A stretch of 60,269 nucleotides of DNA from Candidatus Jordarchaeia archaeon (GCA_029856435.1 JAHQXB010000123.1:1-60269), one strand, 5' to 3'; positions 3,367 to 57,065 are shown, counted from the stretch's first letter. Program-made: numbers and translations. Notes: generated by a model from the sequence alone, not told the origin.

Positions 3367-5700
3367 ATGATTGGCGTCTATATTTGTGAGTGTGGTGGAA
3401 ACATTGGAGATGTGGTTGACGTTAACGCAGTGAAGGAAGCCATCCAAAAAATTCCCGACGTGAAAACCGTACGAATAAACAGGTTTCTATGTTCTAAACT
3501 AGGTCTTAAAATGATAGTGGACTCTGTCAAAAAACAGAACTTGGACCGGGTGGTAGTTGCATCGTGTTCCCCACACATGCATGAGGAGACCTTTAGAGAG
3601 ACAGTGGTTGAAGCGGGACTAAACCCCTACATGTTTGTACACACAAATATTCGAGAGCAGGATTCTTGGGTCACCAAGGATAAAAAGAAGGCTACAGAAA
3701 AGGCCATAGCCATAATATCGGGGGCAGTGGGCAGAGCGAGAAAATTGGAGCCCCTCCAAAAGACCAGAGTAGAAATCTCTAAGGATGTTATGGTCATCGG
3801 CGGCGGAATAGCGGGGATAACAGCGGCGCTACAGCTGGCAAACTCTGGATACCGCGTCATAATGGTGGAAAAAAAGCCGAGCATAGGAGGCAGAATGGCT
3901 CAGCTCAGTAAGGTTTTCCCCACCCTAGACTGTGCACCCTGCATCCTCAGCCCCAGAATGGCAGACGTGGACAAAAACCCCAACATCACACTACTAACCA
4001 ACTCAGAAGTGGAAAAGGTATCAGGCGGACCGGGAAACTATGAGGTGCAAGTTAGGATTAAGCCCCGAGGAGTGGATGTTGAGAAGTGTTTAAGATGTGG
4101 CAAGTGTGAGAAGGTATGTGAGGTGGAGGTCCCAGACGAGTATGAGGCGGGACTCTATAAACGCAAAGCAATATATTTACCATTTGCACAAGCTGTTCCC
4201 GCCGCTTACACCATAGACTTCGAAAACTGTAAAAAATGCGGGGCCTGTCAAAAGGAGTGCCCCGCCGAGGCCATAAACATCAACCAAGAGGAGAGAGAGG
4301 AGATCTTCAATGTGGGGGCAATAATAGTTACTACTGGCTATGACCTCCTAGATAAGGGTGAGATAGAAAGATACAAGATTGACGAGGAATCTACAATAAC
4401 TTCACTCCAGCTGGAGAGACTTATAGAGAATGAGCTTGCAGCGGGAGAAGTTCTTAAAAATTCCAAGGGTAAACGCATAAAAGACGTAGCATTTATTCTC
4501 TGCGTAGGCTCCAGAAATCCACATAAGGGAGTTTCCTACTGCAGCAAAGTCTGTTGTCCCTACGCGGTTAAGGAAGCGATACTGCTGAAGAAGACTCTAC
4601 CCTATCTCCGCATATGGATCTACTACATTGATTTGAGGATGGCTGGCCGAGGATACGAAGAACTCTACAGACAGGCGCGGGAAATGAACATAAACTTCAT
4701 CCATGGCAAGCCCGCAGAAGTGAGCCTAGACCCAGAATCTGGAAGACTCCAAATTGTGTCTGAGGACATTGACACAGGCCAAATAATAAGAAACTCTTTG
4801 GATCTCGTTGTTTTATGCCCAGCTATGATTCCTTCAAGAGACTTGGGAGAACTGGCGGGCAAGCTCAACATTTCCACGGGTGAGGATGGCTTTATCGCAG
4901 AAAAGCACATTAAACTTAATCCAGTTTCCACCCTAAGGGAGGGTATATACGCTGCGGGAACAGCTCTTGGCCCAAAGGATATCAGAGAATCCGTGGTAGA
5001 CGCCAGGTCCACTGCAGCCCAAGCAATAGAATTTTTGGGAGAGGGATACAAGGATATTTCACCGATAAAAGCTAGACTGGTAGGTGAATGTCGGGGCGCG
5101 GGGGAGTGTGTGAAAGTATGCCCCCACAACGCCATAACATTAAGCGAGAAAACTGGTAAAGCGGAGATAAATATACTGGCCTGTAATGGTTGTGGAGCAT
5201 GTGTCCCCGCATGCCCTAACAAAGCTTTACAGTTGGCTCACTATACAAAGGAGCAAATAATGGAGGAAGTAAAGGGTCTTCTATCTGTACCAACAGAGGA
5301 TATTAGAATAATTGGATTCTTTGGAGACTCTACAGCTTATCCCGCTGCAGACGCTGCCGGCGTATCGCGGCTAAACTATCCCCCAAACCTACTGATTGTA
5401 AGAGTGCCATCTACTGCGCTTATAGATACAGAGACGCTGATAAAAACTTTGGAGATGGGCGCAGATGGAATTATGCTTTGTGAAAATGGAGACACTAAGG
5501 AGGGAGAGTTAACCGAGGAGAATGTGAAGAAAACACAGATGGAGCTTGAAAAGAGGGGAATAGAGAAGGAAAGAGTGTTTTACCAGCCCCTAGCAATTCC
5601 GGCATACAAGTCTCTGCCATACTTGGTAGAAACATACCTTTCAAGGATCAAAAAAGTTGGAAAAATAGGCGTCAAAACTGCGCCTCTCTCTAAAGGCTAA
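3367..5700 (+). CDS. hdrA: HdrA-like flavoprotein with a C-terminal degenerate MvhD-like domain
   Basis: N-terminal YICECGGNI, GGGIAG, KVFPTLDCAPC, ferredoxin insert, CVGSR...YCSKVCC, C-terminal ferredoxin. The last ~140 aa align with MvhD (AADAAGVSRLNYPPN...GADG) but lack its Cys motifs. Confidence 0.92.
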   Translation: MIGVYICECGGNIGDVVDVNAVKEAIQKIPDVKTVRINRFLCSKLGLKMIVDSVKKQNLDRVVVASCSPHMHEETFRETVVEAGLNPYMFVHTNIREQDSWVTKDKKKATEKAIAIISGAVGRARKLEPLQKTRVEISKDVMVIGGGIAGITAALQLANSGYRVIMVEKKPSIGGRMAQLSKVFPTLDCAPCILSPRMADVDKNPNITLLTNSEVEKVSGGPGNYEVQVRIKPRGVDVEKCLRCGKCEKVCEVEVPDEYEAGLYKRKAIYLPFAQAVPAAYTIDFENCKKCGACQKECPAEAININQEEREEIFNVGAIIVTTGYDLLDKGEIERYKIDEESTITSLQLERLIENELAAGEVLKNSKGKRIKDVAFILCVGSRNPHKGVSYCSKVCCPYAVKEAILLKKTLPYLRIWIYYIDLRMAGRGYEELYRQAREMNINFIHGKPAEVSLDPESGRLQIVSEDIDTGQIIRNSLDLVVLCPAMIPSRDLGELAGKLNISTGEDGFIAEKHIKLNPVSTLREGIYAAGTALGPKDIRESVVDARSTAAQAIEFLGEGYKDISPIKARLVGECRGAGECVKVCPHNAITLSEKTGKAEINILACNGCGACVPACPNKALQLAHYTKEQIMEEVKGLLSVPTEDIRIIGFFGDSTAYPAADAAGVSRLNYPPNLLIVRVPSTALIDTETLIKTLEMGADGIMLCENGDTKEGELTEENVKKTQMELEKRGIEKERVFYQPLAIPAYKSLPYLVETYLSRIKKVGKIGVKTAPLSKG

Positions 5701-5778
5701 GCCTCACCCAACGCAGATATTCCCATTGAAGCTTTTCATTAGCACTAAGGTTATTAGGGCTGCTATTATAGGAGATTT

Positions 5779-6720
5779 TTATATTGGTTCAAAGGCATTT
5801 ATTTTCTCTAGATAGTCCAGCATTTTAAGGTATAGCCTATCTCTTTTTTTGAGAATTTCTTCTTCACTCCGTCCGCCATAATCGTAGAATCCTTTAGATG
5901 TCTTAGCTCCAAGGTGTCCCTTTTTTACCTTTTCCTCAAATATGGGGTGGCTCACTCCGTAACTCTTCATTATGTCAAGCACCAAATCTAATCCGGTAAA
6001 GTCATAAGTTTGAACTACCCCCACTATAGGAAGTCTGATTCCTAGACTGCTCTTCACTGCTAGATCAATTTCCGTAGGGGTGGCCCAGCCCTTCTCCAAA
6101 ATCTCTAAAACTGCAAGGGAGATTTGGTTTTGGATGCGGTTTACAATGAAGGAACGCACAAATTCCCTCAATACTATTGGCCTTTTACCTAGCCTTTCCA
6201 TTAATTCCTTGGCAAATGCGACCACGTCTCCAGATGTCTTTGGCCCGGGAACCACCTCAACTAGGGGAATTATGTGTGGTGGGGCAAACCAGTGGGTTAT
6301 GATCAGTCTTGCGGGCTTTTTGACCTCCGCAATGCTGAATATATCCAACCCTGAAGTGTTGCTGGCCAAAACTATGTCTTCTGGGCACAGTTCATCGAGT
6401 TGAGCGAATACCTTTTTCTTAACCTCGGCGACTTCAGACACCACCTCAATTGCAAAGTCTGCCCCCTGAGCCCCTTCAGCTAGACTGGTTGTGGGATGGA
6501 TGCGTCTCAAAATGGTGGAAATCTCTTTTCTGGGTACACGTTTAAACTCTGCCAGAATACTCAGATTAGACTTTATGAGATTAGTTGCGTGTTCCAGAAT
6601 CTTTTCATTTAAATCTACAAGGCTAACCTCAATCCCCGCTTGTGCAAAAACCTGTGCGATAGAGTGCCCCATTACGCCGGCACCAACAACCAGAGCCTTC
6701 TTAACATTCTTTGCATCCAT
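5779..6720 (-). CDS. 3-hydroxyacyl-CoA dehydrogenase family protein
   Basis: GAGVMG Rossmann motif, EVKKKVF, SNTSG, HWFAPP...PLVEVV, FIVNRI. Confidence 0.92.
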   Translation of the reverse strand: MDAKNVKKALVVGAGVMGHSIAQVFAQAGIEVSLVDLNEKILEHATNLIKSNLSILAEFKRVPRKEISTILRRIHPTTSLAEGAQGADFAIEVVSEVAEVKKKVFAQLDELCPEDIVLASNTSGLDIFSIAEVKKPARLIITHWFAPPHIIPLVEVVPGPKTSGDVVAFAKELMERLGKRPIVLREFVRSFIVNRIQNQISLAVLEILEKGWATPTEIDLAVKSSLGIRLPIVGVVQTYDFTGLDLVLDIMKSYGVSHPIFEEKVKKGHLGAKTSKGFYDYGGRSEEEILKKRDRLYLKMLDYLEKINAFEPI

Positions 6721-9040: not shown

Positions 9041-9904
9041 CTACTTTGAAAATTTTTTGATTACTGAGGCATCTATGCGGTTTTCGTTGAGGGCTAAATC
9101 TTGGTAGTCGATTCCCATCGCTAAACCTAAGAGCTGAGAATAATGAACTATGGGAATATCAATGGGTTTGTTTGGGGGCATTTGGCTCTGCTCATACATT
9201 AAGTAGCAAAATGGACACGCAGTGACCATTATATCAGCGTACCTTTTAACTGTTGAAAGCTTTTCCCTAGCTATTTCAGTGGCTAATTCGTTCCTCCGTT
9301 TTATTGTCAGCAATGGAGCGGAGCAACAGTCCAGCTTGCCTGGATAATCTATGCTAACTGCTCCTGCAATGTTAACTAGTTCATCTAGGGAAGTGGGGTC
9401 TTCAGGGTCATCAAAATTCATTATCTTGAAAGGCTTTAATAAGTGGCATCCGTAATGCACCGCTACCCTTAAACCCTCCAGAGGGTTCGAAACATGGGCG
9501 CGAATTCTGTCAATTCCCAAATCCTCCAAAAACATTCGCACAAAATGTTTAACCTCCACCTTTCCCCTAAACTCTCGATCTACCTCCGCAAGAATGTTGT
9601 TCACATCGTCTCTCAGTTCAACTTCCTTTTTCAGCGTGTTGTTGGCGTCTGTGAGGACTTCTGTGCAACCATTACACAAAGTAACAATGTTAACCCCCAT
9701 ATCCTCTGCTATGGATATGTTCCGAGCAGCCAAGGCAAGCGCGGTTCTGGGGTCTATACACTTTAAATAGGTAGTTCCACAACATCCCGCCCCCTCCATA
9801 TCCAAGAGCTCCACACCTAAAGCCTCAGCTACTTTTCTCGTGGAAACCTCATAGCTCGGAAGCCTAGCTAATGTCGTGCACCCCACAAAAAATGCATATC
9901 TCAT
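9041..9904 (-). CDS. hdrB: HdrB-like
   Basis: VGC...GCCG...CNGC and HYGCH...DCCS...CPFC. Confidence 0.92.
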   Translation of the reverse strand: MRYAFFVGCTTLARLPSYEVSTRKVAEALGVELLDMEGAGCCGTTYLKCIDPRTALALAARNISIAEDMGVNIVTLCNGCTEVLTDANNTLKKEVELRDDVNNILAEVDREFRGKVEVKHFVRMFLEDLGIDRIRAHVSNPLEGLRVAVHYGCHLLKPFKIMNFDDPEDPTSLDELVNIAGAVSIDYPGKLDCCSAPLLTIKRRNELATEIAREKLSTVKRYADIMVTACPFCYLMYEQSQMPPNKPIDIPIVHYSQLLGLAMGIDYQDLALNENRIDASVIKKFSK

Positions 9905-9910
9905 AAATTT

Positions 9911-10456
9911 TCAATCCTCCGCCAGTTCTATTCCCACAAGTTTGTCAAGGCCCGTCATTCTCATAATTTTTCTAACCTCATCAATGTCAACTTTGGGTAC
10001 AGGTGGGAGCTCCCTCATTTCCCTATCTTCCTCTATGAATTCAGTCATCTCATAAATATAACCATGACTAGCTAGGGCTTCAATAACCTTCTTCAAAGAA
10101 GGATGCAGGTAACCTTCCCTAGCCGCGACTCCTCGCAGAGCTGAAATTATCTCCGCCAGCTCCACATTCTGGGGGCAACGCTCAAGGCACGTGTAACACT
10201 GGGTGCACAGCCACAATAGATCTCCCTTAAAGAGCGCCTGCTTCATTCCAAGCTTGGTCATCATAGCTATCAATCTGGGCTTGTACTCCTTAAGGTGTCT
10301 CCCAACTGTGCAGTCAGCACTGCATGTGCCGCACTGGAAGCAGAGCATAAGCTTTTCGCATCCCGGAATTTTGCTAATCTCCTTCTGTAGGCTGGTATCC
10401 AAATCCTTGAGTTTTATGACTGTTTGCTTTTCATCAGAAGAATTTGCTTCAGTCAT
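9911..10456 (-). CDS. hdrC: HdrC-like
   Basis: CFQCGTCSADC and WLCTQCYTCLERCPQ. Confidence 0.92.
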   Translation of the reverse strand: MTEANSSDEKQTVIKLKDLDTSLQKEISKIPGCEKLMLCFQCGTCSADCTVGRHLKEYKPRLIAMMTKLGMKQALFKGDLLWLCTQCYTCLERCPQNVELAEIISALRGVAAREGYLHPSLKKVIEALASHGYIYEMTEFIEEDREMRELPPVPKVDIDEVRKIMRMTGLDKLVGIELAED

Positions 10457-10490
10457 TTTGAATCACTACTCTTCAATTTTATTCTCCCCA

Positions 10491-10835
10491 TCATCTAACC
10501 AACTCATATAGATACATGTTCTCTTTCTCACCCGCAAAGGTAACCCTTCCCATTCTTCTTAGGGCTAATAGGTGCTTAACTACTGCTTGTTCTGGAAGTC
10601 GGGTTGCCTTGGAAAGGTCTTTTACTGATAATGGGCCCTGTCCTTCGATTTCATTCATAATAAGCCATCTCTCCATCTCCTCTCTCATAATCTTCCTCAT
10701 AAGTTGCTCCAAACCTTCCTCGGTGATGGTTCCTGATTCCAAAAGGGCTTGGCTTCGCCCAATCAGCCATCTGACACGAATGTCTCCCAGAACTCCAACA
10801 GCCGCCTCTAATCTTTTTCTTAAATCTTCAGACAA
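10491..10835 (-). CDS. Stand-alone winged-helix protein homologous to the C-terminal extension of MvhD 15685-16455
   Basis: TTG at 10835 after GGAGG. GPLSVKDLSKATRLPEQAVVKHLLALRRMGRV is an HTH-wing pattern that aligns with HPLSVRELSERLNLRPQRVLSHIAAMRRKNLV. Confidence 0.75.
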   Translation of the reverse strand: MSEDLRKRLEAAVGVLGDIRVRWLIGRSQALLESGTITEEGLEQLMRKIMREEMERWLIMNEIEGQGPLSVKDLSKATRLPEQAVVKHLLALRRMGRVTFAGEKENMYLYELVR

Positions 10836-25512: not shown

Positions 25513-25567
25513 AAAGAACAACTCTCCCTCAATATTCCAAAAATTTTTCATTCAATATCCTTAGTAA

Positions 25568-30654: not shown

Positions 30655-30669
30655 TTACTAACCCTCTTT

Positions 30670-37631: not shown

Positions 37632-37770
37632 CCAAATCTGAGTAATTTATGAGGCCCAATCTTATGAGTAAACTGGTTTCGGCAAGTTCCAAGGAGGAAG
37701 TCTATGATGAGGCTTCTTTGCCGAAAATTTGTTTCTTCAATAATTTGGAGGAATATTTGAGGCGATAATT

Positions 37771-40700: not shown

Positions 40701-40702
40701 AT

Positions 40703-42148: not shown

Positions 42149-43481
42149 AGAGAAATGTGGAGTATTTGGAATCTATGCCTTTGATCAGAAATGGAATGTT
42201 TCCAGATTCGTGTACTACGGGCTAATAGCATCACAAAACAGAGGACAGGAAACCTGTGGAATAGCCACCTACAACGGGAACGAAATCAAATGCATCAAAG
42301 GTAGAGGAATGGTGGAAGAATTCTTCACAGCAGAAAAACTAGAAAAAACACCGGGCTGGATAGGAATAGGAAATGTTTGCCCATTCAGCCCAGAATCCAC
42401 AAACAACATACAACCAGTAAGCGACAACAAAACCCAACTAGTCTTCAGCTACAATGGAAAAATACTAAACTTCAAAGAAATATCCCCCAACTCCAACACC
42501 GGACCAGACGAAGACCCAAACGTCGCCGCAAAACTACTATCCCAAGAACTAGAAAAAAGCGACCCCTTACAAGCCACCGAAACCGTTATGGAGAAATTCA
42601 AAGGAGCCTACTCATTCGTAGCCATCACAAAAAACGGCGAAATGATAGTGGCACGAGACCCTATGGGCATAAAACCCCTATGTATAGGAAGCTTCGGCTT
42701 CGACCACGGAGCCGTCGCCTCAGAAAGCGCCACCCTAGACATAATAGGCGCAGACTACAAAGCACCAATAAAACCCGGAGAAATCTACGTATTCACCCCA
42801 TACAGCATAGAGAGAAAACAAGCCTTCAAACCCCAACCCAAATACTGCGCCTTCGAATACGTCTACTTTGCACGCCCAGACTCCATAATAAACGACAAAT
42901 CCGTCTACGAAGCCCGAATGAAAATCGGAGAACACCTCGCCAAAGAATTCCCCGTAGAAGCCGACGCGGTAATAGGCGTACCCGAAACCGCCATACCATT
43001 CGCTATGGCCTACTCAAACTACACCGGCACACCCATAGAAATGGGATTTGTAAGAACCGGCCGCGCAGTGCGAACCGCAATAAAACCCACACAGTTCGAA
43101 CGACTTGTAGGAGTGCAACTCAAACTAAACCCCATACGCAGCGCCATCCGAGGAAAAAAAGTAGTCCTAATCGACGACAGCGTAGTAAGAGGAACCACAA
43201 CCAGAAACATCGTCAACCTTATGCGCAACCGCATAGGAGCCAAAGAAGTCCACGTAAGAATAGGCAGCCCCCGCCTAATCTCACCCTGCCCATTCGGTGT
43301 CGAAGTTCCAGAAAAAGACGAACTCATAGCAGCCAACCTAACACCCGAAGAAGTAAGCAAAGTAGTAGGCGCAGACACCTTCGCCTGGCTATCCCTCAAA
43401 GGCGTAATCGACTCAATAGGATTCCCCAAAGAAAAACTCTGCCTAGGATGCTTCACAGGAAAATATCCCATAGAAGAATAA
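42138..43481 (+). CDS. purF: Amidophosphoribosyltransferase paralog with degenerate glutamine site
   Basis: CGVFG, QNRGQETCG, GNVCPF in place of HVRY, CAFEYVY, DDSVVRGTT, CLGC; TTG start after GGAGG. Confidence 0.88.
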   Translation: MKIKEKCGVFGIYAFDQKWNVSRFVYYGLIASQNRGQETCGIATYNGNEIKCIKGRGMVEEFFTAEKLEKTPGWIGIGNVCPFSPESTNNIQPVSDNKTQLVFSYNGKILNFKEISPNSNTGPDEDPNVAAKLLSQELEKSDPLQATETVMEKFKGAYSFVAITKNGEMIVARDPMGIKPLCIGSFGFDHGAVASESATLDIIGADYKAPIKPGEIYVFTPYSIERKQAFKPQPKYCAFEYVYFARPDSIINDKSVYEARMKIGEHLAKEFPVEADAVIGVPETAIPFAMAYSNYTGTPIEMGFVRTGRAVRTAIKPTQFERLVGVQLKLNPIRSAIRGKKVVLIDDSVVRGTTTRNIVNLMRNRIGAKEVHVRIGSPRLISPCPFGVEVPEKDELIAANLTPEEVSKVVGADTFAWLSLKGVIDSIGFPKEKLCLGCFTGKYPIEE

Positions 43482-43500
43482 AACATAGGAGAATAAAAAA

Positions 43501-44979
43501 ATGGTAAAAATTCTGCTCGTAGGAAACGGAGCAAGAGAACACGCCATAGCCGACACACTAGCCAGAAGCACGCACCAACCGAAAATATACGCAGCGGCCG
43601 GTGAACGAAACCCCGGCATACTGAGAATATGCCAAAAAACTGGGGGAGAAATCATACTGGGAAAACCCACCGATCCCAAATTTGTAGCCCAAACCGCACA
43701 AAAATACTCCGTAGACTTCGTCTTCATAGGGCCCGAAGAACCACAATTCATGGGCGTAGCAGACGAGGTAGAAAATATGGGAATCCCCTGCATAGGAGCA
43801 AAAAAAGCCCCCTCAGAAATAGAAATGTCAAAAGCCTTTATGCGGAGACTCATGTGGAAATACAAAATCCCCGGAAGACTAAGATTCATGGCCTTTAAAA
43901 ACGTCGAAGACGCTATAGCCTACATAAACGAGTATGCAGAAAGCATAGCGCTAAAACCAGCAAGACAAGCAGGAGGAAAAGGAGTAAAAGTCATCGCAGA
44001 CCTCCAAGCATACCTCCAACAAGAAAAAGCGGAAGTAAAGAGAAAACACGCCCACGACATCTACGAAAAACACATGCAACCCTACACAGACATCGAAGAC
44101 AGAATACTAATAGAACAAAAAGTAGAAGGACCAGAATACACACTACAATGCTTCACAGACGGAAAAACCATAAAACCCCTACCACTAGTACAAGACAACA
44201 AAAACGCATACAATATGGATATTGGGCCCGAAACTGGTGGTATGGGTAGTATTGGTGGTCCGGGGTTGACTTTGCCCTTCATTAATGAGGAGGAGTATAA
44301 GCAGTCTGTTTCTATTGTGGAGAATGTTGTGAGGGCTATTGATAAGGAGTTGGGTGAGCCTTATCGTGGTGTTATTGCGGGTCAGATGATGTTGACTGCT
44401 CTGTGGGGTCCTACTATTATCGAGTTTTATTCACGGTTCGGTGATCCCGAGGCAGTGAATGTTCTTCCCATCCTTGAATCGGACTTGGTGGATGTTTCAG
44501 AGGCCATAATAAGTGGTAAACTTGGTAAAATTAATTTGAAGTTTAGAGATACAGCTACTGTTGTGAAGTGTATTGCTCCTAGAGGGTATCCTGATAGGAG
44601 GGATTTAGCTAGAGGTCATCCTTTGTATGTTGATGAGGCGGCTATTGAGAAGAGGGGTTGCAGGGTTTTCTATGGTTCTGTTGGCTTACAGGATGGTGAG
44701 ATGATTACTGGTGGGGCGCGCGCCGTGGAAATTTTGGCTGAGGCGGAATCTATTCCAGAGGCTTCAGAAATTGCGGAGAGCTGCATAGATTTTGTTAAAC
44801 TTAAGGATGACTGGAAACTATTCCATAGATCTGATATCGGCGGCGAGACGCTTTTAGAGAAGAGGATTGAGTTGGCTCAATTGATTAGGGAGATATATAA
44901 CTATCGCAGAGAAAAGGATCTTGTTGGGAGACAGGTGGACTGGATTCCGCTCAGGGGACGAATAGAGTACCAAGCCTAG
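43501..44979 (+). CDS. purD: Phosphoribosylamine-glycine ligase
   Basis: GNGAREHA, GPEEP, GGKGV, GPETGGMGS, EFYSRFGDPE. Confidence 0.95.
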   Translation: MVKILLVGNGAREHAIADTLARSTHQPKIYAAAGERNPGILRICQKTGGEIILGKPTDPKFVAQTAQKYSVDFVFIGPEEPQFMGVADEVENMGIPCIGAKKAPSEIEMSKAFMRRLMWKYKIPGRLRFMAFKNVEDAIAYINEYAESIALKPARQAGGKGVKVIADLQAYLQQEKAEVKRKHAHDIYEKHMQPYTDIEDRILIEQKVEGPEYTLQCFTDGKTIKPLPLVQDNKNAYNMDIGPETGGMGSIGGPGLTLPFINEEEYKQSVSIVENVVRAIDKELGEPYRGVIAGQMMLTALWGPTIIEFYSRFGDPEAVNVLPILESDLVDVSEAIISGKLGKINLKFRDTATVVKCIAPRGYPDRRDLARGHPLYVDEAAIEKRGCRVFYGSVGLQDGEMITGGARAVEILAEAESIPEASEIAESCIDFVKLKDDWKLFHRSDIGGETLLEKRIELAQLIREIYNYRREKDLVGRQVDWIPLRGRIEYQA

Positions 44980-45107
44980 CTACCTCTTTTTTAAACTATA
45001 CTGCTTTAGCTTCGCAAAGACTTTTTAGTTTAGGATGCTCTAAATGGATGTAGTTAGTAATTGGATTGTTTTTGTCATGGAATAATAGTGTAAAGTGGTG
45101 TAAAGCT

Positions 45108-45512
45108 ATGACTGAGAAGGAACCTTTGGTGTCAATTGTTATGGGCAGTGAATCTGATAGGGAGATAGCTTTAAAGGCTGTTGAGGTTTTGGACAGCAAT
45201 AATGTTCCTTATGAGGTTAGGGTGCTTTCCGCTCATAGAGATCCCAAAGAACTGGAGAAGTATATTACTGAGACGAAGTCTTTAGTGTTTATTGCGGTTG
45301 CCGGTTTGGCCGCTCACCTGCCCGGATTTATTGCTTCGAGGACGGAGAAGCCAGTTATCGGTGTGCCTGTTAGTTCCAAGCTGGGGGGTTTGGATGCCCT
45401 TCTTTCCATTGTTCAAATGCCTTCCGGTGTTCCTGTGGCTTGTGTGGGTATTGATAATGCGCGGAACGCTGCCTTTTTAGCGTTGAGGATACTTAAACTC
45501 TTGGGGCGATGA
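45108..45512 (+). CDS. purE: AIR carboxylase / N5-CAIR mutase
   Basis: [44 protein letters not shown]. Confidence 0.95.
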
Positions 45513-45540
45513 GTGTGTTTAGATGGAGGATCCGTGAAGG

Positions 45541-46908
45541 TTGAATTTTCAAGTGGTTATAGTGGGTGCTGGGCCGGCTGGGTTAGCGGCTGCCTACGAA
45601 CTTTCAAAAAGGAATGTCAGAGACATCTTGGTTATTGATCAAGGTAAAGCTGCCTCCAAAAGGCAGTGTCCCATGTCTAAGAATTATAATAATTGTGCTC
45701 GCTGTGATCCTTGTAGTATAATGTGTGGGATTGGTGGGGCGGGTACCTATTCCAGCGGGCTTTTAAACCTGAATCCGTATATTGGTGGTGATTTGACTGA
45801 ATTTACTAGTGATGAGAGGGAAGCGTGGGAGCTAGTTAACACGGTGGATCAGATGTTTCTGGAGAATGGTGCCCCTAATATTTTGTTTAAGCCAGATAGA
45901 GAGAGAGTGGAGGAGCTTGAGAGGAAGGCGTCCTCTGCGGATGTCAGGTTTATTCCCATAGATCAGAGGCTTATTGGTACAGACAATGCTTGTGCGGTGA
46001 TTGAGAGGATTCACTCTCGATTAGAAGGTTGGGGTGTGAAGTTTCTTCTCGAAACGAAGGTTGCCGAAGTAAAAGAGGGAGAATTATTACTGGAGGGGGG
46101 CGAGAAGGTGGGGTTCGAGTATTGTATTCTTGCTCCCGGAAGGTCGGGGATGAAGTGGTTGGAGGGACAGATGAGTAGGTTGGGTATCCAAACCCAGTAT
46201 TTGCCTGTAGATATAGGGGTAAGGGTGGAGGTGCCGGCGAGCATAATGGAGCCAGTTTGTAGTATAGAACATGACCCCAAGTTTCATATTCGCACCTCAA
46301 CGTTTGATGATTTTGTGAGAACCTTTTGTGTGAACCATAAGGGATTTGTGGTTATGGAAGTTTATGATGATCATGTGGGTGTCAATGGATACTCATTCAC
46401 TAATAAAGCGTCTGATAATACTAATTTTGCTTTGCTGGTGAGGGTGGGGCTTACTGAGCCTTTAGAAGATACAACGGCTTATGGTAGATCAATTGCTACG
46501 CAGATAACCATTCTGGGGGGTGGGAGACCTCTGCTTCAGCGTTTGGGAGACCTCAGAAGGGGAAGGAGATCCTATTGGTCTAGGATAGAGAGGGGAGCAG
46601 TTAAACCGACCCTGATGTCTGTAACTCCGGGGGATGTTTCAATTGGGATTCCCTACCGGCTTTTAACAGATATTCTTGAGGGTTTAGAGAAGCTGGACAG
46701 GGTTATTCCGGGAATTGCGGGTGATTCAACTTTGTTTTATGCTCCAGAAATTAAATACTCTGCAAAAAAGGTTCTCACCAATAAAAGCTTGGAAACAAGG
46801 ATACCTAACTTGTTTGTTGCGGGGGACGGCGCTGGGGTTTCGAGAGGTATAGTGACAGCAGCGGCTACCGGGATAGTGGCTGCAAGAGGTATTCTCAAAA
46901 AGATGTAG
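45541..46908 (+). CDS. FAD-dependent oxidoreductase (COG2509-like)
   Basis: GAGPAG, Cys cluster CPM...CARCDPC, GGAGTYSSG, RTFCVNHKG, AGDGAGVSRG. Confidence 0.85.
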   Translation: MNFQVVIVGAGPAGLAAAYELSKRNVRDILVIDQGKAASKRQCPMSKNYNNCARCDPCSIMCGIGGAGTYSSGLLNLNPYIGGDLTEFTSDEREAWELVNTVDQMFLENGAPNILFKPDRERVEELERKASSADVRFIPIDQRLIGTDNACAVIERIHSRLEGWGVKFLLETKVAEVKEGELLLEGGEKVGFEYCILAPGRSGMKWLEGQMSRLGIQTQYLPVDIGVRVEVPASIMEPVCSIEHDPKFHIRTSTFDDFVRTFCVNHKGFVVMEVYDDHVGVNGYSFTNKASDNTNFALLVRVGLTEPLEDTTAYGRSIATQITILGGGRPLLQRLGDLRRGRRSYWSRIERGAVKPTLMSVTPGDVSIGIPYRLLTDILEGLEKLDRVIPGIAGDSTLFYAPEIKYSAKKVLTNKSLETRIPNLFVAGDGAGVSRGIVTAAATGIVAARGILKKM

Positions 46909-47172
46909 GTTTCCCAATTTTCTCCTCTAGACTAATTGAAAAACTTTTGGTTTTTATATTTAGTGGGTGCGAGAAGGTTTCTGGCTTTTGTGGTGCTTGA
47001 TAAAATGTTTGGTTTGCTTGTTTGAGGTTGGTGGTTTGCCGGGGGAAATATGGTTGTGTTTGGTTGCTTTTTTGGGAATGCAATAATTCTATATACTCTG
47101 AAGGTAGATATTATGAAGGAGAGATATATACTGGTTTGCTTGTAGTGTTTAATTAAGGGAGGTATGTTTTGA

Positions 47173-47727
47173 GTGAGCTTTAAGGATTCTGGGTGGTCGG
47201 ATTTGGAAATTCTGCAAAATATCTCAGAATGCTTTAAGCTTTTGAAGAAGGGTTTGGAAAATTTGAAAAACAAAGAATTTGAAAACGCTTTATCTGTTTT
47301 GTCGGACGCCTCCACTCTTATGTATATAAGTCTTAGTCGAACTGTTACCCGTAATTTATCCTATAGGCATGCTTATGGTATTATTGTACAATTCAATATT
47401 TTAGTGGTTTCTCTTGCTATAAGTTTTCTTGTGCGTGCCAGTCAAGTTAAAGAGGAAGCAAGGGAGAGTTTGGGGGGAGCCACATCTCTTATAGCTTTAA
47501 TCACGGCGTTTCTGAACCCATTGTTGAGAAGCATTATAGAGCAAGAATCAAAGCCTGGCGGCTACAAGTTAACGGAAAAAGATAGATATCTTTTAGAAGA
47601 GATGATGGAGCTGAATGAAGTTATCCGAGATTTCAAAAAACAGTTTGAGGAGGAGAGAAAAGAGGTTTTGGAAGAAAAGCCAAAAAAGGTAACTGCAAAG
47701 ACTAAAAAAACGCGGGCCAAGAGGTAA
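47173..47727 (+). CDS. Hypothetical helical protein
   Basis: 184-aa ORF after a GGAGG RBS; hydrophobic core helices and basic tail. Confidence 0.7.
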   Translation: MSFKDSGWSDLEILQNISECFKLLKKGLENLKNKEFENALSVLSDASTLMYISLSRTVTRNLSYRHAYGIIVQFNILVVSLAISFLVRASQVKEEARESLGGATSLIALITAFLNPLLRSIIEQESKPGGYKLTEKDRYLLEEMMELNEVIRDFKKQFEEERKEVLEEKPKKVTAKTKKTRAKR

Positions 47728-50620: not shown

Positions 50621-51709
50621 CTATTTTTTCCAGAGCTTCTGGGCGATTTCAGATGCGCGGTGTTTCTGCCAAAGTTCTAGGTACCTCAATATGTTTTCAT
50701 CGTTTCGGTAAACGTCAAAAACAATGTTGTACTTTGCCTCCAGTACTGGGAGGAATGATCCCTGCAGTGCATCTCTATAAGTTCTAATACCTTCAGGATC
50801 TTCCTCATCAAGAACTTTGATTATCGTCTTCGCTGCTAATTCGCCCGACTCGAGGGCATAAGGAATTCCTTTGCCCGATATGGGATCCACTAGGCCAGCG
50901 GCGTCTCCTACTGCTACCACGCCCCCTTCGTGGAATTTTTCGCGAGTTTTTAGGGGAACCAAGTGGGCCGAGGTTCTGATGGTTTCCCCGCTGGATAAAA
51001 TTTTTTTTATAGGTTCGTAGTCTAGAAACTTTTGAAAAGAATTCCTCGTGTTACTAATATCTGATAGTCGGCAACCCCATCCCAAACTTATCACATTTCT
51101 TTTAGGAAAAGCCCACCCATAACCAAATTTACTTATGTCTTTGCCAAAATAAAAGTTGATGGTCTTTTCACCTATGATTTCCGCTATTTTTTCTTTTTTA
51201 GATAGAATCTCTTTTTGTACGGTCAGGTATACTTCATCTGCTTTGAAGGGCCTCCAACCAATAGACTTTAAAGTTGGAGAATTGACCCCATCAGCTGCAA
51301 CCACCATCCTAGTTTCAACATCACCCCTCTTTAGTTTAAGCTTATAATGATCGTTTCTCCACGTAACACTTTTCAGAGCTTGAGACTCCATAAGCTTTGC
51401 ACCGGCCGCAGCCGCAAGGTATTGAAAGTAACCATCAAACTTTAGCCTCCAAACCACGGCGCCGAAACCAAGCCTGTGAAAAACTTTCCCCGAAGTGTGA
51501 TAAGTTACAAGAGATTCCACTTCACGCTCAATTACCTCACTTGGAATTTTATATTTGCTCACGAGTGTTAATTCTATAGCTCCACCACAGGGTTTGTACC
51601 TCGGAATCTCATCCCTATCAATCAAAACTACCTTGTATCCCGCCTCCGCAATGTGAGCTGCGGACAATGAGCCTGAAGGTCCGGCGCCAACCACAGCAGC
51701 ATCATACAA
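50621..51709 (-). CDS. Geranylgeranyl reductase family flavoprotein
   Basis: GAGPSG, KPCGG, ADGVNS, YGWAFPK, VGDAAGLVDPISGKGI. Confidence 0.92.
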   Translation of the reverse strand: MYDAAVVGAGPSGSLSAAHIAEAGYKVVLIDRDEIPRYKPCGGAIELTLVSKYKIPSEVIEREVESLVTYHTSGKVFHRLGFGAVVWRLKFDGYFQYLAAAAGAKLMESQALKSVTWRNDHYKLKLKRGDVETRMVVAADGVNSPTLKSIGWRPFKADEVYLTVQKEILSKKEKIAEIIGEKTINFYFGKDISKFGYGWAFPKRNVISLGWGCRLSDISNTRNSFQKFLDYEPIKKILSSGETIRTSAHLVPLKTREKFHEGGVVAVGDAAGLVDPISGKGIPYALESGELAAKTIIKVLDEEDPEGIRTYRDALQGSFLPVLEAKYNIVFDVYRNDENILRYLELWQKHRASEIAQKLWKK

Positions 51710-51915
51710 ATATTTTAAACCTCACCTAATTTGTGTTATTCTGAATGGTCAACTCCACTCATAAATATTATCCCAAAAAACAGCATATATTGTTATTCCA
51801 TAAAAAACGGTTAAAAATATCTATTATTATTTATTTTCAATTTTAGAGCCGATGAAACCTTTTTATAGAAGAAAGAAGCATTCTAAAGATAAATTATTAA
51901 AAAGAGGAAAGTAAA

Positions 51916-52158
51916 ATGCCCAGAAAAAAAAGCGAAACAATCATACCAGTTGCACCAATCGATAGACTGATCAGAAACGCCGGCGCGGAAAGAGTTTCAG
52001 AAAGTGGAGCTGCAGCACTAGCCAAAATCTTAGAAGAACTTGGGACGGAAATAGCGCGACTAGCAGATGAGATGGCGAAGCACACTGGAAGAAAAACCAT
52101 AAAAGAAGAGGACATCGACTTGGCATACAAAACATGGAAAAAAACAAAATTCCCATAA
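51916..52158 (+). CDS. Archaeal histone (HMf family) with short basic extensions
   Basis: IPVAPIDRLIRNAGAERVS...HTGRKTIKEEDIDLA. Confidence 0.96.
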   Translation: MPRKKSETIIPVAPIDRLIRNAGAERVSESGAAALAKILEELGTEIARLADEMAKHTGRKTIKEEDIDLAYKTWKKTKFP

Positions 52159-52291
52159 CAAACCAATAAACATCTAGCAGATACGCACAAACTGGTATTT
52201 CAAATAGTACTACTTTGAACAAAAATTTTCCAAAGCGCTATCCTATTATTTTTAAAGCTGTTAGAATCTAAGTACGAAGTCAGAAATGCTT

Positions 52292-54514
52292 TTATCTTGA
52301 AACTCGCAGCTCATACCGGAGTACATCGCCTAGGTTCTCAATCTCTGAAATATTGTATATGCTGCCTCCACTTTTCTCTGCGATGCTTTGGCAAATCTTC
52401 TTCCGCCAATTCTTCATTAACGCGTGGCTTTCTGGACGGATAACAACAGTGCGAATGTTTTCCTTTTTTATCAATTTAGCTATCTCCTCAATCTCGTATA
52501 GTAACTGGTTGTAGGATTCCATCTCAGACCTCATCTGTTGAATGTAAGAGTAACGTTTTTCAGAAAAATTGCCGGCGTTTAGTGGCACATTTGCGCCCCC
52601 GTCACTAATAGTTACTAGGAAGGGTACTACCTTGTTATCTTTCATTTTCTCCCGTTTCAGTACTTCGAGTCCTTTGACCAGTCCTGCTGCTAGGGGAGTC
52701 CAACTTCCAGATTTTACGGTTAACAGTTTTGCAGTTACCGTTTGCAGGTTTACTGTGGGATATTGCATTACTTCGGCGTTGTAGCCTTTGAATACCACCA
52801 GTCCCACGCGGTCTCTTTGGCGATAGGCTTCATCGTGCAGGGAGAGTATCACCTGTTTGACTTTTTTTAGGTTTTTAAACATTGAGCCGCTGGCATCAAG
52901 TACAAAGACTATGGAGAGTGGGGCGCGGTACTCAAATATTTTTTCGCGAATATCTTGGGTTCGGATATTTACTGCCAGATTTTTGTTTTTTCTGCTTTTT
53001 TGGTAGGGTGAGGATGCTCTTATTGACGCATCCAATGCGATGTGCCTAGTTTTTTCTTTGGGGATTTTGTAGTAGATGTATCTTCCTTTGTCTGAGGAAC
53101 CTTTTGCTTTTAGCCTCCTTCCCAAAAAGCTGGGTTCATCCTTTCTGAAGTAGCTTTTATACTGCTGCCTAAAAAATTCTCCAAGAATGTTTGCCTTCTT
53201 GAGCTCTTCTAGTTCTTCTTCTGTTAAGGCATCAAATCTTGGGTCTCTGATATTTATCATTCCATCTCGGTCTTGGCCTTCTTGTTGCTGTGTGTAGCGG
53301 TTCAAGAGGTCTTGGTAGGGGATGTCCTGATTTGACGGAGCGGCTTGCATGCCTTCCTCAAATGAGATGTTTTGAATATCTTTTCCCGAGGCATCCTCAC
53401 TTTTGGTTTGTTGTTGACCATTCATTTCGGCGTCGTTACGAAAAAAACCCATGGCCTCTTGTTGCTTCACTTCGTTTAGTGTTTTTTCGAATGCTTCTGC
53501 TATCCTTTTGTTTACCGTTTCTGCATCTTCGAATTCAAATTTTCGAATTCTGTGACCTAGGGCTAATTCCGCAGCCTTTAGCACGTCTTGTTCGTTTACT
53601 TCTTTTCTTCCGTCCAAGGCTGCTAATGCTTTGGCGCAGCGCATAACCGTTATATCCCCTCTATGGGTGCCTACTCCCAGCTCCAGGCACAATCTTACAA
53701 TGGTTACCAGAAGGTACGTTGGTATTTTTACTTCTGGAAGAATTTCTTTAGCCTTCACTATCCTTTTCTGAAGATCCTCTTCTTCACTCTGCCACTTCTT
53801 CAGAAACTCTTCCTGGTTTTTATCAAATTCTTGGATGCGGTTTAGTATCTCCAGTCTTTGTTTAACATCCTTGAGAGGGGCCACCTCTACCTGTAGGCCT
53901 ATTCTGTCAAGTATTTGTGGTCTTAGTTCCCCCTCCTCAGGATTCATACTTCCCACTAACACGAAGCTTGAGGGGTGGGATACAGATACGCCTTCTCTTT
54001 CTACAGTGTTAACCCCAAAAGCTGCGGCGTCTAGAAGGTCGTCCACTATATGGTCACTTAGAAGGTTAATCTCGTCTACATATAGTATTTGCCGATTAGC
54101 TTCAGCTAGTATGCCTGGCTCCAGAGCTTTAACTCCTTCCTTTATTGCCCTTTCAATGTCTAGAGATCCCACAACTCTATCCTCTGTTACCCCCAAAGGA
54201 ATTTCAACAACCCTCATCCTCCTGACCTCATATTCTAAGGTATCGTTTTCCTTCAGTTTGGCTTTACACATTTCACACATAGTTGATGGATTTGCGGGAT
54301 CGCAGTTAAATGGGCAATTCTTAACGAATTCTATTTCTGGCAATAATGCAGCTAATGCTCTCACTGCAGTAGATTTCCCTGTGCCTTTCTCTCCACGGAT
54401 CAATACGCCACCGATTTTAGGATCTATAACGTTTAAAATTAGACCAAGCTTCATATTAGTTTGGCCGACTATTGCCGTGAAGGGAAAAACAACTTTTTTA
54501 TATCGAACAGACAT
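52292..54514 (-). CDS. ChlI/ChlD-type chelatase AAA+ ATPase with vWA domain
   Basis: [33 protein letters not shown], acidic/Gln-rich linker, MIDAS DASGS. Confidence 0.92.
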
Positions 54515-54651: not shown

Positions 54652-55002
54652 CAGCATAGCTTTTTGTTCACCTTTCCATTTCTTTAAACTTTTATTTTCG
54701 CAATGGTCGCACATTCAATTTTTAGTTGTAATTATACTAATGAAACTGCACAAAAGATCCATGTACCATACCTTCCCTAAAAATTAAGGAAAAGCTTTTT
54801 TCCCATAGAAAGTTCACATAAAGAACGCTGCATATTACGATGAGTATGCAAATGAGTGGGTAGGCCAAGAAATTCTGCAAAGTACAGTAATTCTCCTCAG
54901 GAAAGGAAACTTTATCATTAGGTGCGAGAATAGGATAAACTAAAAACACTTTTAGGCGTCTATAGAATTAAATATAAATAAAATGTTGAGAGAAGGATTC
55001 CG

Positions 55003-55992
55003 GTGGCAAAAATGAAAACAATAATTTATGCAGGTGCAGAACTTCCCCCCATACTAAGAGTAATGTCTAAAGCGTATTCCCTGAGTGATGTTACCATAAT
55101 AGCAAATAACATACATGACTACTACTTTTCTGGTTTAAAAATTATGCATGAAACGGACAGTGCAATACTTCTTTTATCAAAAATCAAAGATGGTGTGGAC
55201 TCCTACACACTCCAAGGCATACTAGAAAAGTTTGGCGTTAAAACCAGCATACCTACATCAGACGCCAAGATTGGGATCACCTTGTATAGAGAAGGAAAAT
55301 TAAAAAATAACCAGGACCTTGTAAGCGTTCATCGGGATCTATGTAAAGCCCTACAGCTTAAAACAAACGTAATACCCTTTACGAATGGAGAAGTCGAAGC
55401 GACTGTCAAAACAGGGGAAGGCGAAATAAGCTTATTAGAATACTTTACTGCAAAAAAGGAATTTAACGTTAAAAAACTGGAATTAGAAGGAATGGAAAAA
55501 ATAAAGCCTTTTGATCAAGTGGTAAAAATCATAAAAGATAGTGAATCAATACTCATCACACCCAATGATCCAATAAGCATCATGCCAATCATAAAAAACA
55601 AAAATATTCAGGAAGCCATCGAAAACTGCCAGGGACACGTCACAGTAATTTGTCCTCCAATCACTAAAAGGTCAACCCTCCTTCTAGAAACGCTGGGCAT
55701 CGAACCAACGCCCCTAGGGGTAGCCAAAACCTTTGAAGAACACATAGACACCTTCATAATAAACCGCAACCATCAGGACCTCAAGCCGCAAATAGAAATC
55801 CTAAAAATGGAAGTCGTCGCCACGGACCTGTACGAAACAGAAGCCGAATATGGAAATACAATACCAAAACCAATACAAGAACGCTTCCAGCTGGAAACCA
55901 AAGCCCCACCAGTAATCACCGGATTAAAAAAGGGAGTCCAAAAAATAGGAAAAATATTAGGAACCCCCGAAAAAACCAAAGAACAAGAATAA
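55003..55992 (+). CDS. CofD/UPF0052-like protein with degenerate active site
   Basis: VTIIAN, VIPFTNGEVEATV, LLEYF, ILITPNDPISIMPI, VTVICPP, IDTFII occur in CofD order, but the GGxG, DxD and GPSNP/SGPA motifs are missing or altered. Confidence 0.7.
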   Translation: MAKMKTIIYAGAELPPILRVMSKAYSLSDVTIIANNIHDYYFSGLKIMHETDSAILLLSKIKDGVDSYTLQGILEKFGVKTSIPTSDAKIGITLYREGKLKNNQDLVSVHRDLCKALQLKTNVIPFTNGEVEATVKTGEGEISLLEYFTAKKEFNVKKLELEGMEKIKPFDQVVKIIKDSESILITPNDPISIMPIIKNKNIQEAIENCQGHVTVICPPITKRSTLLLETLGIEPTPLGVAKTFEEHIDTFIINRNHQDLKPQIEILKMEVVATDLYETEAEYGNTIPKPIQERFQLETKAPPVITGLKKGVQKIGKILGTPEKTKEQE

Positions 55993-56003
55993 TCACCAAA
56001 AAC

Positions 56004-56026
56004 CTACTCCTTTTTTCTAGGAGTAG
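56004..56026 (+). terminator. Hairpin CTACTCCT-loop-AGGAGTAG with T-run
   Basis: 8-bp stem starting about 11 nt after the stop codon. Confidence 0.45.
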
Positions 56027-56120
56027 AACGCTTGTAATTCCTCAATCGAAAAGGTAATATGTAAGTGTAGAAGATTAATTCATAGAACCTATTTTTTGGG
56101 TTAATGGGGATTGAAGAAAT

Positions 56121-57065
56121 ATGGATGGCGCAGACTATGGTACCCTAATAATTTTAATGGTGGTTGTAATCTTCATATTGTTGGCATTAATTGTGCCCAA
56201 CATAAAAATATTGAGGGAGTATGAGAGGGCCGTAATATTTAGGTTGGGAAGAGTATCTGGAACCAAAGGGCCAGGTATAGTGTTCCTTCTGCCCCTCATA
56301 GACCGAGCGGTTAAGGTGGACCTAAGGGAAAACTACTTCGAAATTCGGAGACAAATGTGCATAACAGGGGACAACAGCCCTTTGGACATTGACGTGTTGT
56401 TCTATTATAGAGTGATTAATCCTGAGGATAGCGTGGTTAAGATTAAAGACTTTCGGGGTGCAGCCATTGGCATTGCACAAACCACCCTAAGATCGGTAAT
56501 TGGGGACATTATGCTTGACGATGTGCTCGCCAAGAGAGAATACATCAATACCGTTCTCAGAGACAAGTTGGACGAGATGACTGAGCGGTGGGGTGTTAAG
56601 GTTACCAGTGTTGAGATCCGAGAGATTCTCCCTCCCAGTCGGGTTCAAAACGCTATGGTTCGCCAGATGGAGGCGGAACGGATTAGGCGAGCTATGGTCA
56701 TTGAGGCTGACGGTACCAAAGAAGCAGCGATTAAAGTGGCTGAAGGTGACGCACGCTCCGAGATTCTGAAGGCTGAGGGAGACCGTGAGGCGGCTATCTT
56801 AGAGGCGGAAGGTGTGAAGCAGAGCATTATTTTGGAGGCAGAGGGTGAAGCACTAGCTCTTGGTAAGGTTTTTGGAGTTGTAAAGGATATTGATAGTAAG
56901 ACCATGACTTTGCAGTATCTAAAGGCTCTGGATGCGCTCGGAAATAATGAACAAACACGTATGATATTTCCATTGGATTTCTCTTCTCTTACGGGAATGG
57001 TCTCGGAACATGTGGATAAAGCATCTGAAGAAGACGCTCGTAGTTCTAAGAAAAAGGTCAAATAG
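56121..57065 (+). CDS. SPFH/band-7 (stomatin/QmcA-like) membrane protein
   Basis: N-terminal TM helix, EYERAVIFRLG, GPG, TLRSVIG, WGVKVTSVEI, AERIRRA and EAEG coiled-coil repeats. Confidence 0.95.
   Translation: MDGADYGTLIILMVVVIFILLALIVPNIKILREYERAVIFRLGRVSGTKGPGIVFLLPLIDRAVKVDLRENYFEIRRQMCITGDNSPLDIDVLFYYRVINPEDSVVKIKDFRGAAIGIAQTTLRSVIGDIMLDDVLAKREYINTVLRDKLDEMTERWGVKVTSVEIREILPPSRVQNAMVRQMEAERIRRAMVIEADGTKEAAIKVAEGDARSEILKAEGDREAAILEAEGVKQSIILEAEGEALALGKVFGVVKDIDSKTMTLQYLKALDALGNNEQTRMIFPLDFSSLTGMVSEHVDKASEEDARSSKKKVK

Follow-up and report, generated by a model that had tools for sequence, protein, structure and literature searches.

Skew zones in the window

The stretch of DNA analysed here (the window; 60,269 nt, Candidatus Jordarchaeia archaeon, GCA_029856435.1 JAHQXB010000123.1:1-60269) is contig C3 of assembly G000 (3.54 Mb in 181 contigs), which derives from a member of the Freyarchaeia (Asgard archaea). 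It encodes Ras-family GTPases and a longin-domain protein, and carries hdrA, purD and an amidophosphoribosyltransferase-like gene. Across such genes and the DNA between them we identified zones in which the plus strand is rich in A and C up to a sharply defined point and rich in G and T beyond it. The zones are the evolutionary trace of a mutation process that affects the two strands unequally and is tied to fixed points.

Keto skew (G+T-A-C) was profiled along the plus strand in 500-nt bins, and its extremes in the window were -0.40 and +0.33. The strength of a switch is given as D, for which genome-wide cuts of 0.4, 0.5, 0.6 and 0.7 were used. As controls, synonymous codons were resampled from genome-wide usage or shuffled within genes. 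The relatives compared are five congeneric assemblies (G001-G005); G001, G003 and G004 are 91-95% identical to G000, and G005 is a manually curated closed genome.

At 44213, inside purD, third codon positions change from nearly pure A/C to nearly pure G/T within a few codons (D = 0.74, compared with at most 0.34 in 100 within-gene shuffles). Keto skew is -0.21 to -0.32 at 42000-44250, and then +0.30 dropping to +0.16 over 44250-47500. The left arm of this site spans the amidophosphoribosyltransferase-like gene (42108-43481) and the first half of purD. Fourfold-degenerate sites of the former gene are A.46, C.44, G.05 and T.05, and the skew of its codon positions 1 and 2 is about 0.

The switch at 28198 lies inside a Ras-family GTPase gene (D = 0.41, at most 0.32 in within-gene codon shuffles), with skew of -0.24 to -0.40 at 26000-28250 and +0.25 to +0.33 at 28250-29750. 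Its left arm, also found in G001, G002, G003 and G004, covers a plus-strand gene (25967-26428), two minus-strand genes (26536-27543) and intergenic DNA; the right arm covers a plus-strand GTPase gene and the minus-strand genes arfB and RibD_C. Further bipolar sites are centred near 37645 (present in G003 and G004, absent in G005), 52330 and 56010, the last with a small 8-bp hairpin at the junction. A separate G/T peak at 36000-36500 (window 35913-36314) lies in codon position 2 (+0.48) of a hydrophobic protein, and is different in kind from the third-position process; amino-acid composition accounts for this peak alone.

Silent-site signal and independence of gene orientation

Third codon positions in the zones have skews of -0.74 and +0.43, compared with -0.06 and +0.08 for positions 1 and 2 together. 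The standard deviation of skew at the 1-kb scale is 0.112, and 0.055 after synonymous resampling. The maximum absolute skew is 0.33, but 0.20 (never above 0.204) in codon-resampled controls, and 9.2% of intervals exceed an absolute skew of 0.2, as opposed to 0 to 0.8% in those controls. The intragenic steps at 44213 and 28198 vanish when synonymous codons are shuffled within genes. Outside genes, intergenic skew tracks the third-position skew of the flanking genes (r = 0.64, n = 697, genome-wide), with agreement in sign in 91% of cases where the flanks are strongly skewed. Thus an effect of codon usage or amino-acid composition fails against the resampling, the shuffles and the intergenic correlation.

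Gene orientation does not set the sign. The minus-strand DUF99/Endo_dU gene (26536-27156) has a sense-strand fourfold keto skew of +0.53 although it lies inside a plus-strand A/C zone, and the minus-strand gene beside it reaches +0.74 within the same zone. The converse holds in the G/T zone, where the minus-strand genes arfB/creatininase (29326-29988) and RibD_C have sense values of -0.48 (fourfold) and -0.45. Across G000, the sense fourfold skews of adjacent genes are correlated at r +0.31 where the genes are co-oriented and at -0.20 where they are opposed. Once corrected for mean sense bias, outward- and inward-pointing genes have equal amplitude at every distance from the switch. The skew did not follow the sense strand from promoters, as transcription or R-loops would require. 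We conclude that the skew goes with the chromosome strand, and that it is mutational in kind because the signal is in silent and intergenic sites, and follows neither amino-acid content nor the direction of transcription.

Genome-wide anatomy

In G000, 7.2% of 1-kb intervals are beyond an absolute skew of 0.2. Sharp switches from A/C to G/T (up) outnumber the reverse (down) by 257 to 112, 83 to 18, 32 to 2 and 8 to 1 at D above 0.4, 0.5, 0.6 and 0.7, respectively. A control using purine skew gave 12 up and 29 down, thus no up-excess, and intragenic third-position steps above 1.2 comprise 25 up and 0 down. If events begin at one point and stop at varying distances from it, sharp up-switches should be in excess. 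The genome-wide lists include switches at C104:15560, C29:2962, C39:19394 and C65:4941.

The averaged profile is symmetric about the switch and fades over approximately 1-3 kb on both sides. Baseline-corrected third-position skew is approximately 0.38 at 0-300 nt, 0.1 at 1.5-2 kb and 0 by 3-4 kb. The zones are therefore bipolar domains, each with a sharp centre, in a genome where skew is otherwise mostly flat; there is about one per 14-43 kb, or about 80-250 sites in 3.5 Mb. The average along genes goes from +0.07 (5' end) to -0.22 (3' end), because the sites lie between genes.

Two other accounts of this profile were rejected. A recombination mosaic of alleles of opposite skew is ruled out, as up-switches alone are sharp. 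A transcription-unit gradient does not hold at 26428/26536 or 29251/29326, since the convergent genes there have a common chromosome-strand skew.

The sequence-only reading of this DNA had reported that sharp A/C-to-G/T switches recur, that the return is gradual and that minus-strand genes follow the chromosome strand. All of this is borne out by the counts at D above 0.5 and 0.6, by controls that never match the data, and by DUF99 and arfB. Codon-resampled and codon-shuffled controls do not reproduce the skew, and neither amino-acid composition nor transcription direction, both of which it had named as possible explanations, accounts for it. Five of the six positions that it listed stand, refined to 28198, 37645, 44213, 52330 and 56010. 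The sixth, near 4030 in hdrA, does not (Table 1); the sole change in that region is from G/T to A/C, near 3400-3500. As it had also noted, the junctions share no convincing motif.

Location of the centres

Approximately 70% of centres are intergenic. A centre is carried by 11.8% of intergenic regions between convergent genes, 5.1% of those between tandem genes and 4.4% of those between divergent genes. A relation to convergent or divergent promoters, which had been proposed for checking, thus takes the form of a preference for convergent gene ends, and divergent promoters are not favoured. In the arms, 60% of coding bases point inwards. Together, the convergent-end preference and the inward coding argue against outward transcription as the cause.

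Intragenic switches occur at hyperconserved motifs of the proteins (Table 1), among them Walker B, HIGH and DTPGH. Seven ABC ATPases, mutually only 30-52% identical, have the switch at Walker B (DEPxxG). A step is present at 6 of 28 Walker-B sites and in 0.35% of random-position trials; by gene, it occurs in 7 of 10 with DEPxxG and in none of 9 in which another residue replaces the G. ABC paralogues in G005, G006, G009, G021 and G034 lack the Walker-B step, so several paralogues gained it in one lineage. Conservation percentiles of the junction window in four proteins (92, 97, 50 and 73) are no more than suggestive, and the recurrence among paralogues is stronger evidence. Anchors of this type might reflect hot spots that destroy their own determinants in cis, so that those shielded by purifying selection alone would endure until their flanks are saturated. 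Alternatively, pairing with diverged homologous DNA may hold only in conserved blocks.

Several observations concern genes that carry switches. In G002 (L148:3402-3632, G002:C39), a stand-alone 3' fragment of rtcB starts exactly at the switch codon of G000 (aa 343) and is preceded by unrelated AT-rich DNA, so that there is either a rearrangement or an assembly break at the switch point. Open reading frame (ORF) lengths and split matches give signs of inteins in V-ATPase B near aa 255 (G038:C88:30027-33176), in RtcB near aa 35 (G013, G034 and G042) and in RNA polymerase A' (G016, G021 and G041), at positions different from those of the skew switches in these genes. We also identified a family of proteins of approximately 450 aa that is expanded in this genus, with 12 copies in G000 (G000:C145:53074-54402 and 11 paralogues). 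Three paralogues have a skew switch at one motif (GYGD...RRIEAETG), and one copy has an in-frame TAG, which fits a pyrrolysine-type methyltransferase.

Table 1. Coordinates and motifs of the skew features. Positions are those of the window unless a contig is named; D, switch strength; pos, codon position.
Feature	Position	Strand	Location or content	Skew or D
Site 1, left arm	25750-28198	+	A/C-rich	keto -0.16 to -0.40; pos3 -0.57, pos1+2 -0.15
Switch 1	28190-28240 (~28198)	+	Ras-family GTPase gene 28006-28545, at WDLAGQ (DxxGQ) motif	
Site 1, right arm	28199-30750	+	G/T-rich	+0.33, then decaying
Weaker bipolar site	37000-38250 (switch ~37645)		intergenic gap 37382-37770	D = 0.44
Site 3, left arm	40500-44213	+	A/C-rich, peak at 42000-44213	
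Switch 3	44205-44225 (44213)	+	purD (43501-44979), immediately ahead of conserved MDIGPETGGMG block	
Site 3, right arm	44214-47500	+	G/T-rich	
Bipolar site 4	51250-53750 (switch ~52330)		3' end of minus-strand gene 52292-54514	
Bipolar site 5	55000-57000 (switch 56010)		gap between plus-strand genes 55003-55992 and 56121-57065	D = 0.53
Claimed hdrA switch	3900-4150	+	no sharp A/C-to-G/T switch	D = 0.16, inside shuffle range
Putative origin (oriC)	G000:C176:9750-16750 (L215:3750-10750)		AT-rich, largely ORF-free, ~3.8 kb, one 161-aa ORF	
Intragenic switch			SKWVGESE, two CDC48-type ATPases	
Intragenic switch			GHFGHIEL, RNA polymerase A'	
Intragenic switch			RFGEMERD, RNA polymerase subunit B	
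Intragenic switch			HIGH, LeuRS	
Intragenic switch			GDGxNDxP, P-type ATPase	
Intragenic switch			PDLTGYITEGQ, V-ATPase B (VatB)	
Intragenic switch			HGAGR, RtcB	
Intragenic switch			DTPGH, EF-2	
Intragenic switch			GPETGGMG, purD	
Intragenic switches			conserved motifs, actin and SAHH	

Substitution spectrum and conservation

G005 lacks the 44213 zone and was used as a proxy for the ancestral state at this site. In the right arm, synonymous changes from G005 to G000 comprise 103 A>G, 96 C>T and 57 A>T, compared with 28 T>C and 16 G>A. The left arm is the mirror image, with 98 T>C, 73 G>A and 27 T>A. The gain of G and T is thus, in either arm, on the strand whose 5'>3' direction leads away from the centre. 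C>T and A>G fall on one strand and are graded with distance from the start.

The zones are reproduced in G001, G002, G003, G004 and the closed G005, and their presence in five independent assemblies excludes an artefact. The sites at 28198 and 52330 are kept in all five congeners at about 73-76% nucleotide identity (approximately 25% divergence). The 44213 site is common to G001, G003 and G004 but absent in G005 and in genomes of the same order; in G005, purD is moderately A/C-rich in both halves. The site arose after the split from G005. Since 44213 and 37645 are limited to some lineages whereas 28198 and 52330 are genus-wide, sites are born and then persist for a long time. G005 and three Atabeyarchaeia share the step in V-ATPase B (steps of 1.1-1.2). 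The genome-wide statistics of G005 are like those of G000, with a fourfold skew standard deviation of 0.26 and an opposed-neighbour correlation of -0.41; the signal in a same-order genome is weaker. Conservation of positions, which had been suggested as a check, is thus found for part of the sites.

Putative chromosomal origin

We identified a putative chromosomal origin (oriC) elsewhere in the genome. Inverted arms of 29 nt, composed of the 13-nt unit TTTTTTTGACATC, lie on both sides of it, and orc1/cdc6 (L215 7819-9057) and the gene for the small subunit of PolD, PolD-DP1 (9128-10747), follow. Near its centre, between the inverted repeats, is an A/C-to-G/T switch of the same polarity as the zones, and there is a second such switch inside cdc6, at the Walker A motif. 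Two of the three origin-type repeats on the cdc6 contig flank the putative origin. For a congeneric complete Freyarchaeia genome, the only skew reported is a cumulative GC skew, which its authors found consistent with bidirectional replication (PMC11291895).

The zones resemble an origin in that the strand leading 5'>3' outwards from the point is G/T-rich, so that A/C is followed by G/T along either strand. Their skew is gone within 3-4 kb rather than persisting to a terminus or to the next origin, and no recognition repeats or adjacent initiator gene were identified at the switches.

Dispersed repeats and other genome features

A 330-nt dispersed repeat (G000:C129:9444-9777; approximately 45 copies, 76-96% identity) is G/T-rich on one strand, with an upstream flank that is slightly A/C-rich for about 1.2 kb. 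It matches no Rfam family. Sequence shared among junctions proved to be mostly this repeat, which gives false switch calls and not kb-scale zones. A dispersed repeat resembling a miniature inverted-repeat transposable element (MITE) is located at 34410-34543 (about 135 nt; approximately 36 copies in G000 and dozens in G003 and G004), and a second short MITE-like repeat at 25565-25705 (about 5 copies). Only three tRNA genes were found in G000 by aragorn, although the genome is rated 97.8% complete; the others may be unassembled, masked or intron-rich.

Interpretation of the zones

The data show the pattern of the zones, with its polarity and spectrum, how it decays, that it ignores gene orientation, that it is conserved and that it now erodes; the type of DNA transaction and its anchor we infer. 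The explanation that we favour, with a probability of roughly 0.4, is that the zones are footprints of bidirectional, short-tract unwinding or synthesis from fixed points, with origin-like polarity, beside the cdc6-linked origin. Initiation of an origin-like type is favoured because of the polarity, the sharp start, the scattered ends and the same polarity at the putative oriC. At each point, unwinding or synthesis of DNA would start and run outwards in both directions for approximately 1 kb (up to approximately 3 kb). The outward 5'>3' strand on each side would gain G and T via A>G, C>T and some A>T. It may be left single-stranded and become deaminated or depurinated, like a lagging-strand template or a displaced strand, or it may be newly made at low fidelity, like the initiator DNA of a primase/polymerase. 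Purifying selection would clear the hits that change amino acids, leaving the bias at silent and intergenic sites. The sites would thus act as short-range origin-like, or restart- or nick-primed, initiation points additional to the main cdc6-linked origin. Their activity would have been strong in the past (for 44213, on the stem of the G000/G001/G003/G004 clade) and would be weak or off now.

Several findings weigh against origin-like initiation. Decay within 1-3 kb is unlike replicon-scale forks, so abortive or short-tract events are required, and we know of no archaeal precedent for these. The near-equal numbers of A>G and C>T misfit plain hydrolytic deamination, in which C should greatly exceed A; damage and misincorporation are thus not separable. 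The preference for convergent gene ends (11.8% versus 4-5%) is only loosely origin-like, and intragenic anchors at hyperconserved motifs, including those of seven ancient ABC paralogues, are not predicted by an origin model. At 146-292 aligned arms we found no position-specific motif beyond an alignment artefact, and enrichment of k-mers and dyads relative to composite pseudo-junctions gave nothing after correction for multiple testing. The origin-type repeat has only 7 matches in the genome, 3 of them on the cdc6 contig, and is not dispersed to the switches. Loss of a repair gene as the cause was rejected, given that genes for EndoV, UDG (three) and NucS are all present.

Recent substitutions also count against it. 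Among derived singletons in the window arms of the four close species, keto>amino changes outnumber amino>keto changes by 474 to 259, and the per-site strand asymmetry is weak (1.1-2.1 fold). This is not an ongoing mutational equilibrium of the mitochondrial type, as the net flux erodes the skew. The zones of the window are eroding now; the building of skew was much stronger earlier, which makes the process either episodic or one that this clade has lost. Constraint on residual A/C sites could mask some current activity, yet it could not explain the unbalanced flux.

The sequence-only reading had taken the switches for many dispersed initiation or nick sites rather than one origin, as a feature of genome maintenance. 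The first part remains the best class of explanation, with polarity as at the putative oriC. The exclusion of a single origin is not supported, given a classical origin-like locus with inverted repeats, orc1/cdc6 and PolD-DP1. Steady maintenance does not agree with the erosion among the four close species, and the link that it proposed checking, between switches and origin boxes, finds no support in the distribution of the origin-type repeat.

The zones might instead record recurrent double-strand breaks or paired nicks at fixed sites, with approximately 1 kb of 5'>3' resection and error-prone fill-in, an explanation that we consider unlikely. The cutter would be a topoisomerase, a nuclease with site or guide specificity, or an activity like that of a homing endonuclease, and the refilled outward 5'>3' strands would gain G and T via G.T, T.G and T.T mispairs. 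Bipolar, sharp-centred tracts on a kb scale around a precise point are also typical of a break hot spot with resection, and near-equal A>G and C>T together with A>T suits misincorporation. Judged from skew and spectrum, the polarity would fit errors in refilled strands; damage on the resected 3' single-stranded tails would yield the opposite. Homing endonucleases typically cut at hyperconserved motifs, which is where the intragenic sites lie, and VatB, RtcB and RpoA' appear to carry inteins in related genomes, though elsewhere in the gene. The gain and loss of sites is episodic and lineage-specific, and the G002 rtcB fragment starting at the switch codon is consistent with breakage. However, with 100-250 or so sites lacking a common motif, a large set of nucleases or guides would be called for. 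A search of the genome for a Piwi/Argonaute domain found none, and although a Cas1 gene is present, there is no CRISPR array on its contig. Very many cycles of break and repair per site would be needed to saturate silent sites. Abortive strand invasion by diverged homologous DNA (paralogues or related species) would also place anchors at conserved motifs, if pairing were stable only in the most conserved blocks. The displacement loop (D-loop) would expose the displaced outward strand to mutation, and the invading 3' end would be extended outwards before collapse. This accounts for the hyperconserved intragenic anchors, the Walker-B gains in one lineage and the recurrence of the VatB step in a second class, and the polarity and sharp start fit. 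The junctions on contigs C29 and C138 have a common 22-nt identical block. Nevertheless, we regard this as improbable, since the intergenic majority of sites is left unexplained and, with donors from the same genome, there is no general excess of repeated exact matches. Exact matches of at least 16 nt elsewhere in the genome occur at 2 of 33 genic junctions and in 9% of controls, and at 21% of all sites and 14% of controls (p = 0.03), no convincing excess.

Divergent, often non-coding, transcription from the switch points would form R-loops in which the displaced non-template strand is deaminated. The polarity suits outward transcripts, a G-rich non-template strand would be self-reinforcing, no motif is needed, and the GC skew that accompanies R-loops at CpG-island promoters offers a parallel (PMC3787257). 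We think it quite improbable given that amplitude is independent of gene orientation, most coding bases in the arms point inwards, and sites are enriched at convergent ends, depleted per kb at divergent promoters and in many cases intragenic. Junctions have neither a TATA-like signal nor an enrichment of the G-clusters associated with R-loop initiation. Selection on synonymous codons or on the structure of mRNA or DNA (e.g., for translation, or for a long hairpin with the switch at its centre) has one point for it, that third positions hold most of the signal. It is largely refuted, and highly improbable, because intergenic DNA is equally skewed and opposed neighbours carry opposite sense-strand bias. 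In addition, hairpin or cruciform potential at ten junctions showed no excess folding (z -2.0 to +1.5), and the zones are eroding rather than being held. Finally, assembly graphs could cross at the conserved motifs where junctions lie, so that chimeric joins at conserved k-mers, or a strand-specific conversion chemistry, might have generated the switches during assembly or sequencing. The probability of this is close to nil: zones and junctions recur in five independent assemblies including the curated closed genome, ORFs and synteny are continuous through the junctions, codon positions 1 and 2 are spared, and up-switches alone are sharp.

Comparison with known systems

Skew jumps mark bacterial oriC (GC and keto skew) and bound mammalian 'N-domains', where T-A and G-C skew jump upward together. 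The zones are like these in the composite of G+T versus A+C, the polarity, the abrupt switch with gradual return, the independence of gene orientation and the visibility at silent sites. They differ in having an amplitude some tenfold greater, which at fourfold sites reaches about 0.8, in spanning 1-3 kb and not a whole replichore or domain, and in their number (about 80-250 per 3.5 Mb), with many intragenic, without origin repeats and eroding. In vertebrate mitochondria, heavy-strand C>T and A>G are graded by the time spent single-stranded. The near-saturating A/C versus G/T silent bias, the combination of C>T with A>G and the gradient with distance are shared, but the mitochondrial case is one replicon with one polarity and here there are many bipolar chromosomal zones. 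To our knowledge, strand-displacement replication is not known for archaeal chromosomes.

Kataegis, break-induced replication and meiotic break hot spots all involve strand-coordinated mutation near breaks. Strand-specific transitions over kilobases beside a break or initiation point, and episodic, self-eroding hot spots, are common to these and the zones. Those clusters are single somatic events or weak population signals, whereas the zones are fixed, filtered by selection and near saturation, and 3'-tail damage has the polarity opposite to theirs. GC skew at eukaryotic promoters and terminators is linked to R-loops and is likewise a local, kb-scale strand skew that flips at a defined point; there it follows transcription and promoters, whereas the zones ignore orientation and favour convergent ends (PMC3787257). 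In archaea, local departures from strand symmetry have been attributed to gene orientation (bioRxiv 10.1101/2023.11.15.567178); the zones are also local departures of this kind in an archaeal chromosome, but are mutational, silent or intergenic, and independent of orientation. In the literature searched, we found no earlier account of bipolar skew at silent sites on the kb scale, for Freyarchaeia or for any other archaea. Also new are the intragenic switches at hyperconserved motifs, the convergent-end preference and the erosion, from which it follows that building is episodic.

Implications

It is possible, although we hold this only tentatively, that Freyarchaeia and at least some Atabeyarchaeia possess, or once possessed, an unrecognised bidirectional, fixed-point DNA transaction, with about one point per 15-40 kb, that saturates silent sites by mutating one strand on either side. 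Its points would prefer convergent gene ends and coding motifs under the protection of selection. Yeast has a similar density of origins. Such a transaction could, on a guess that we rate as doubtful, correspond to eukaryote-like dispersed initiation sites, or to a pathway of hypermutation or repair synthesis, anchored at sites and specific to one strand, that is turned on and off in the course of evolution.

If the zones are footprints of initiation, they would provide a map, drawn from sequence only, of where DNA synthesis or unwinding started in uncultured kin of the eukaryotic ancestor, and would bear on the time at which dispersed, sequence-poor initiation sites first appeared. If they are footprints of breaks or hypermutation, they would represent a new endogenous mutagenic process in which hot spots pass through a life cycle of birth, saturation and erosion. 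Either way, codon usage, origin calls from GC skew, substitution models and phylogenies are distorted for these genomes, the synonymous sites of paralogues are driven to the same bases, and the state of erosion of the zones provides dated markers of lineage history.

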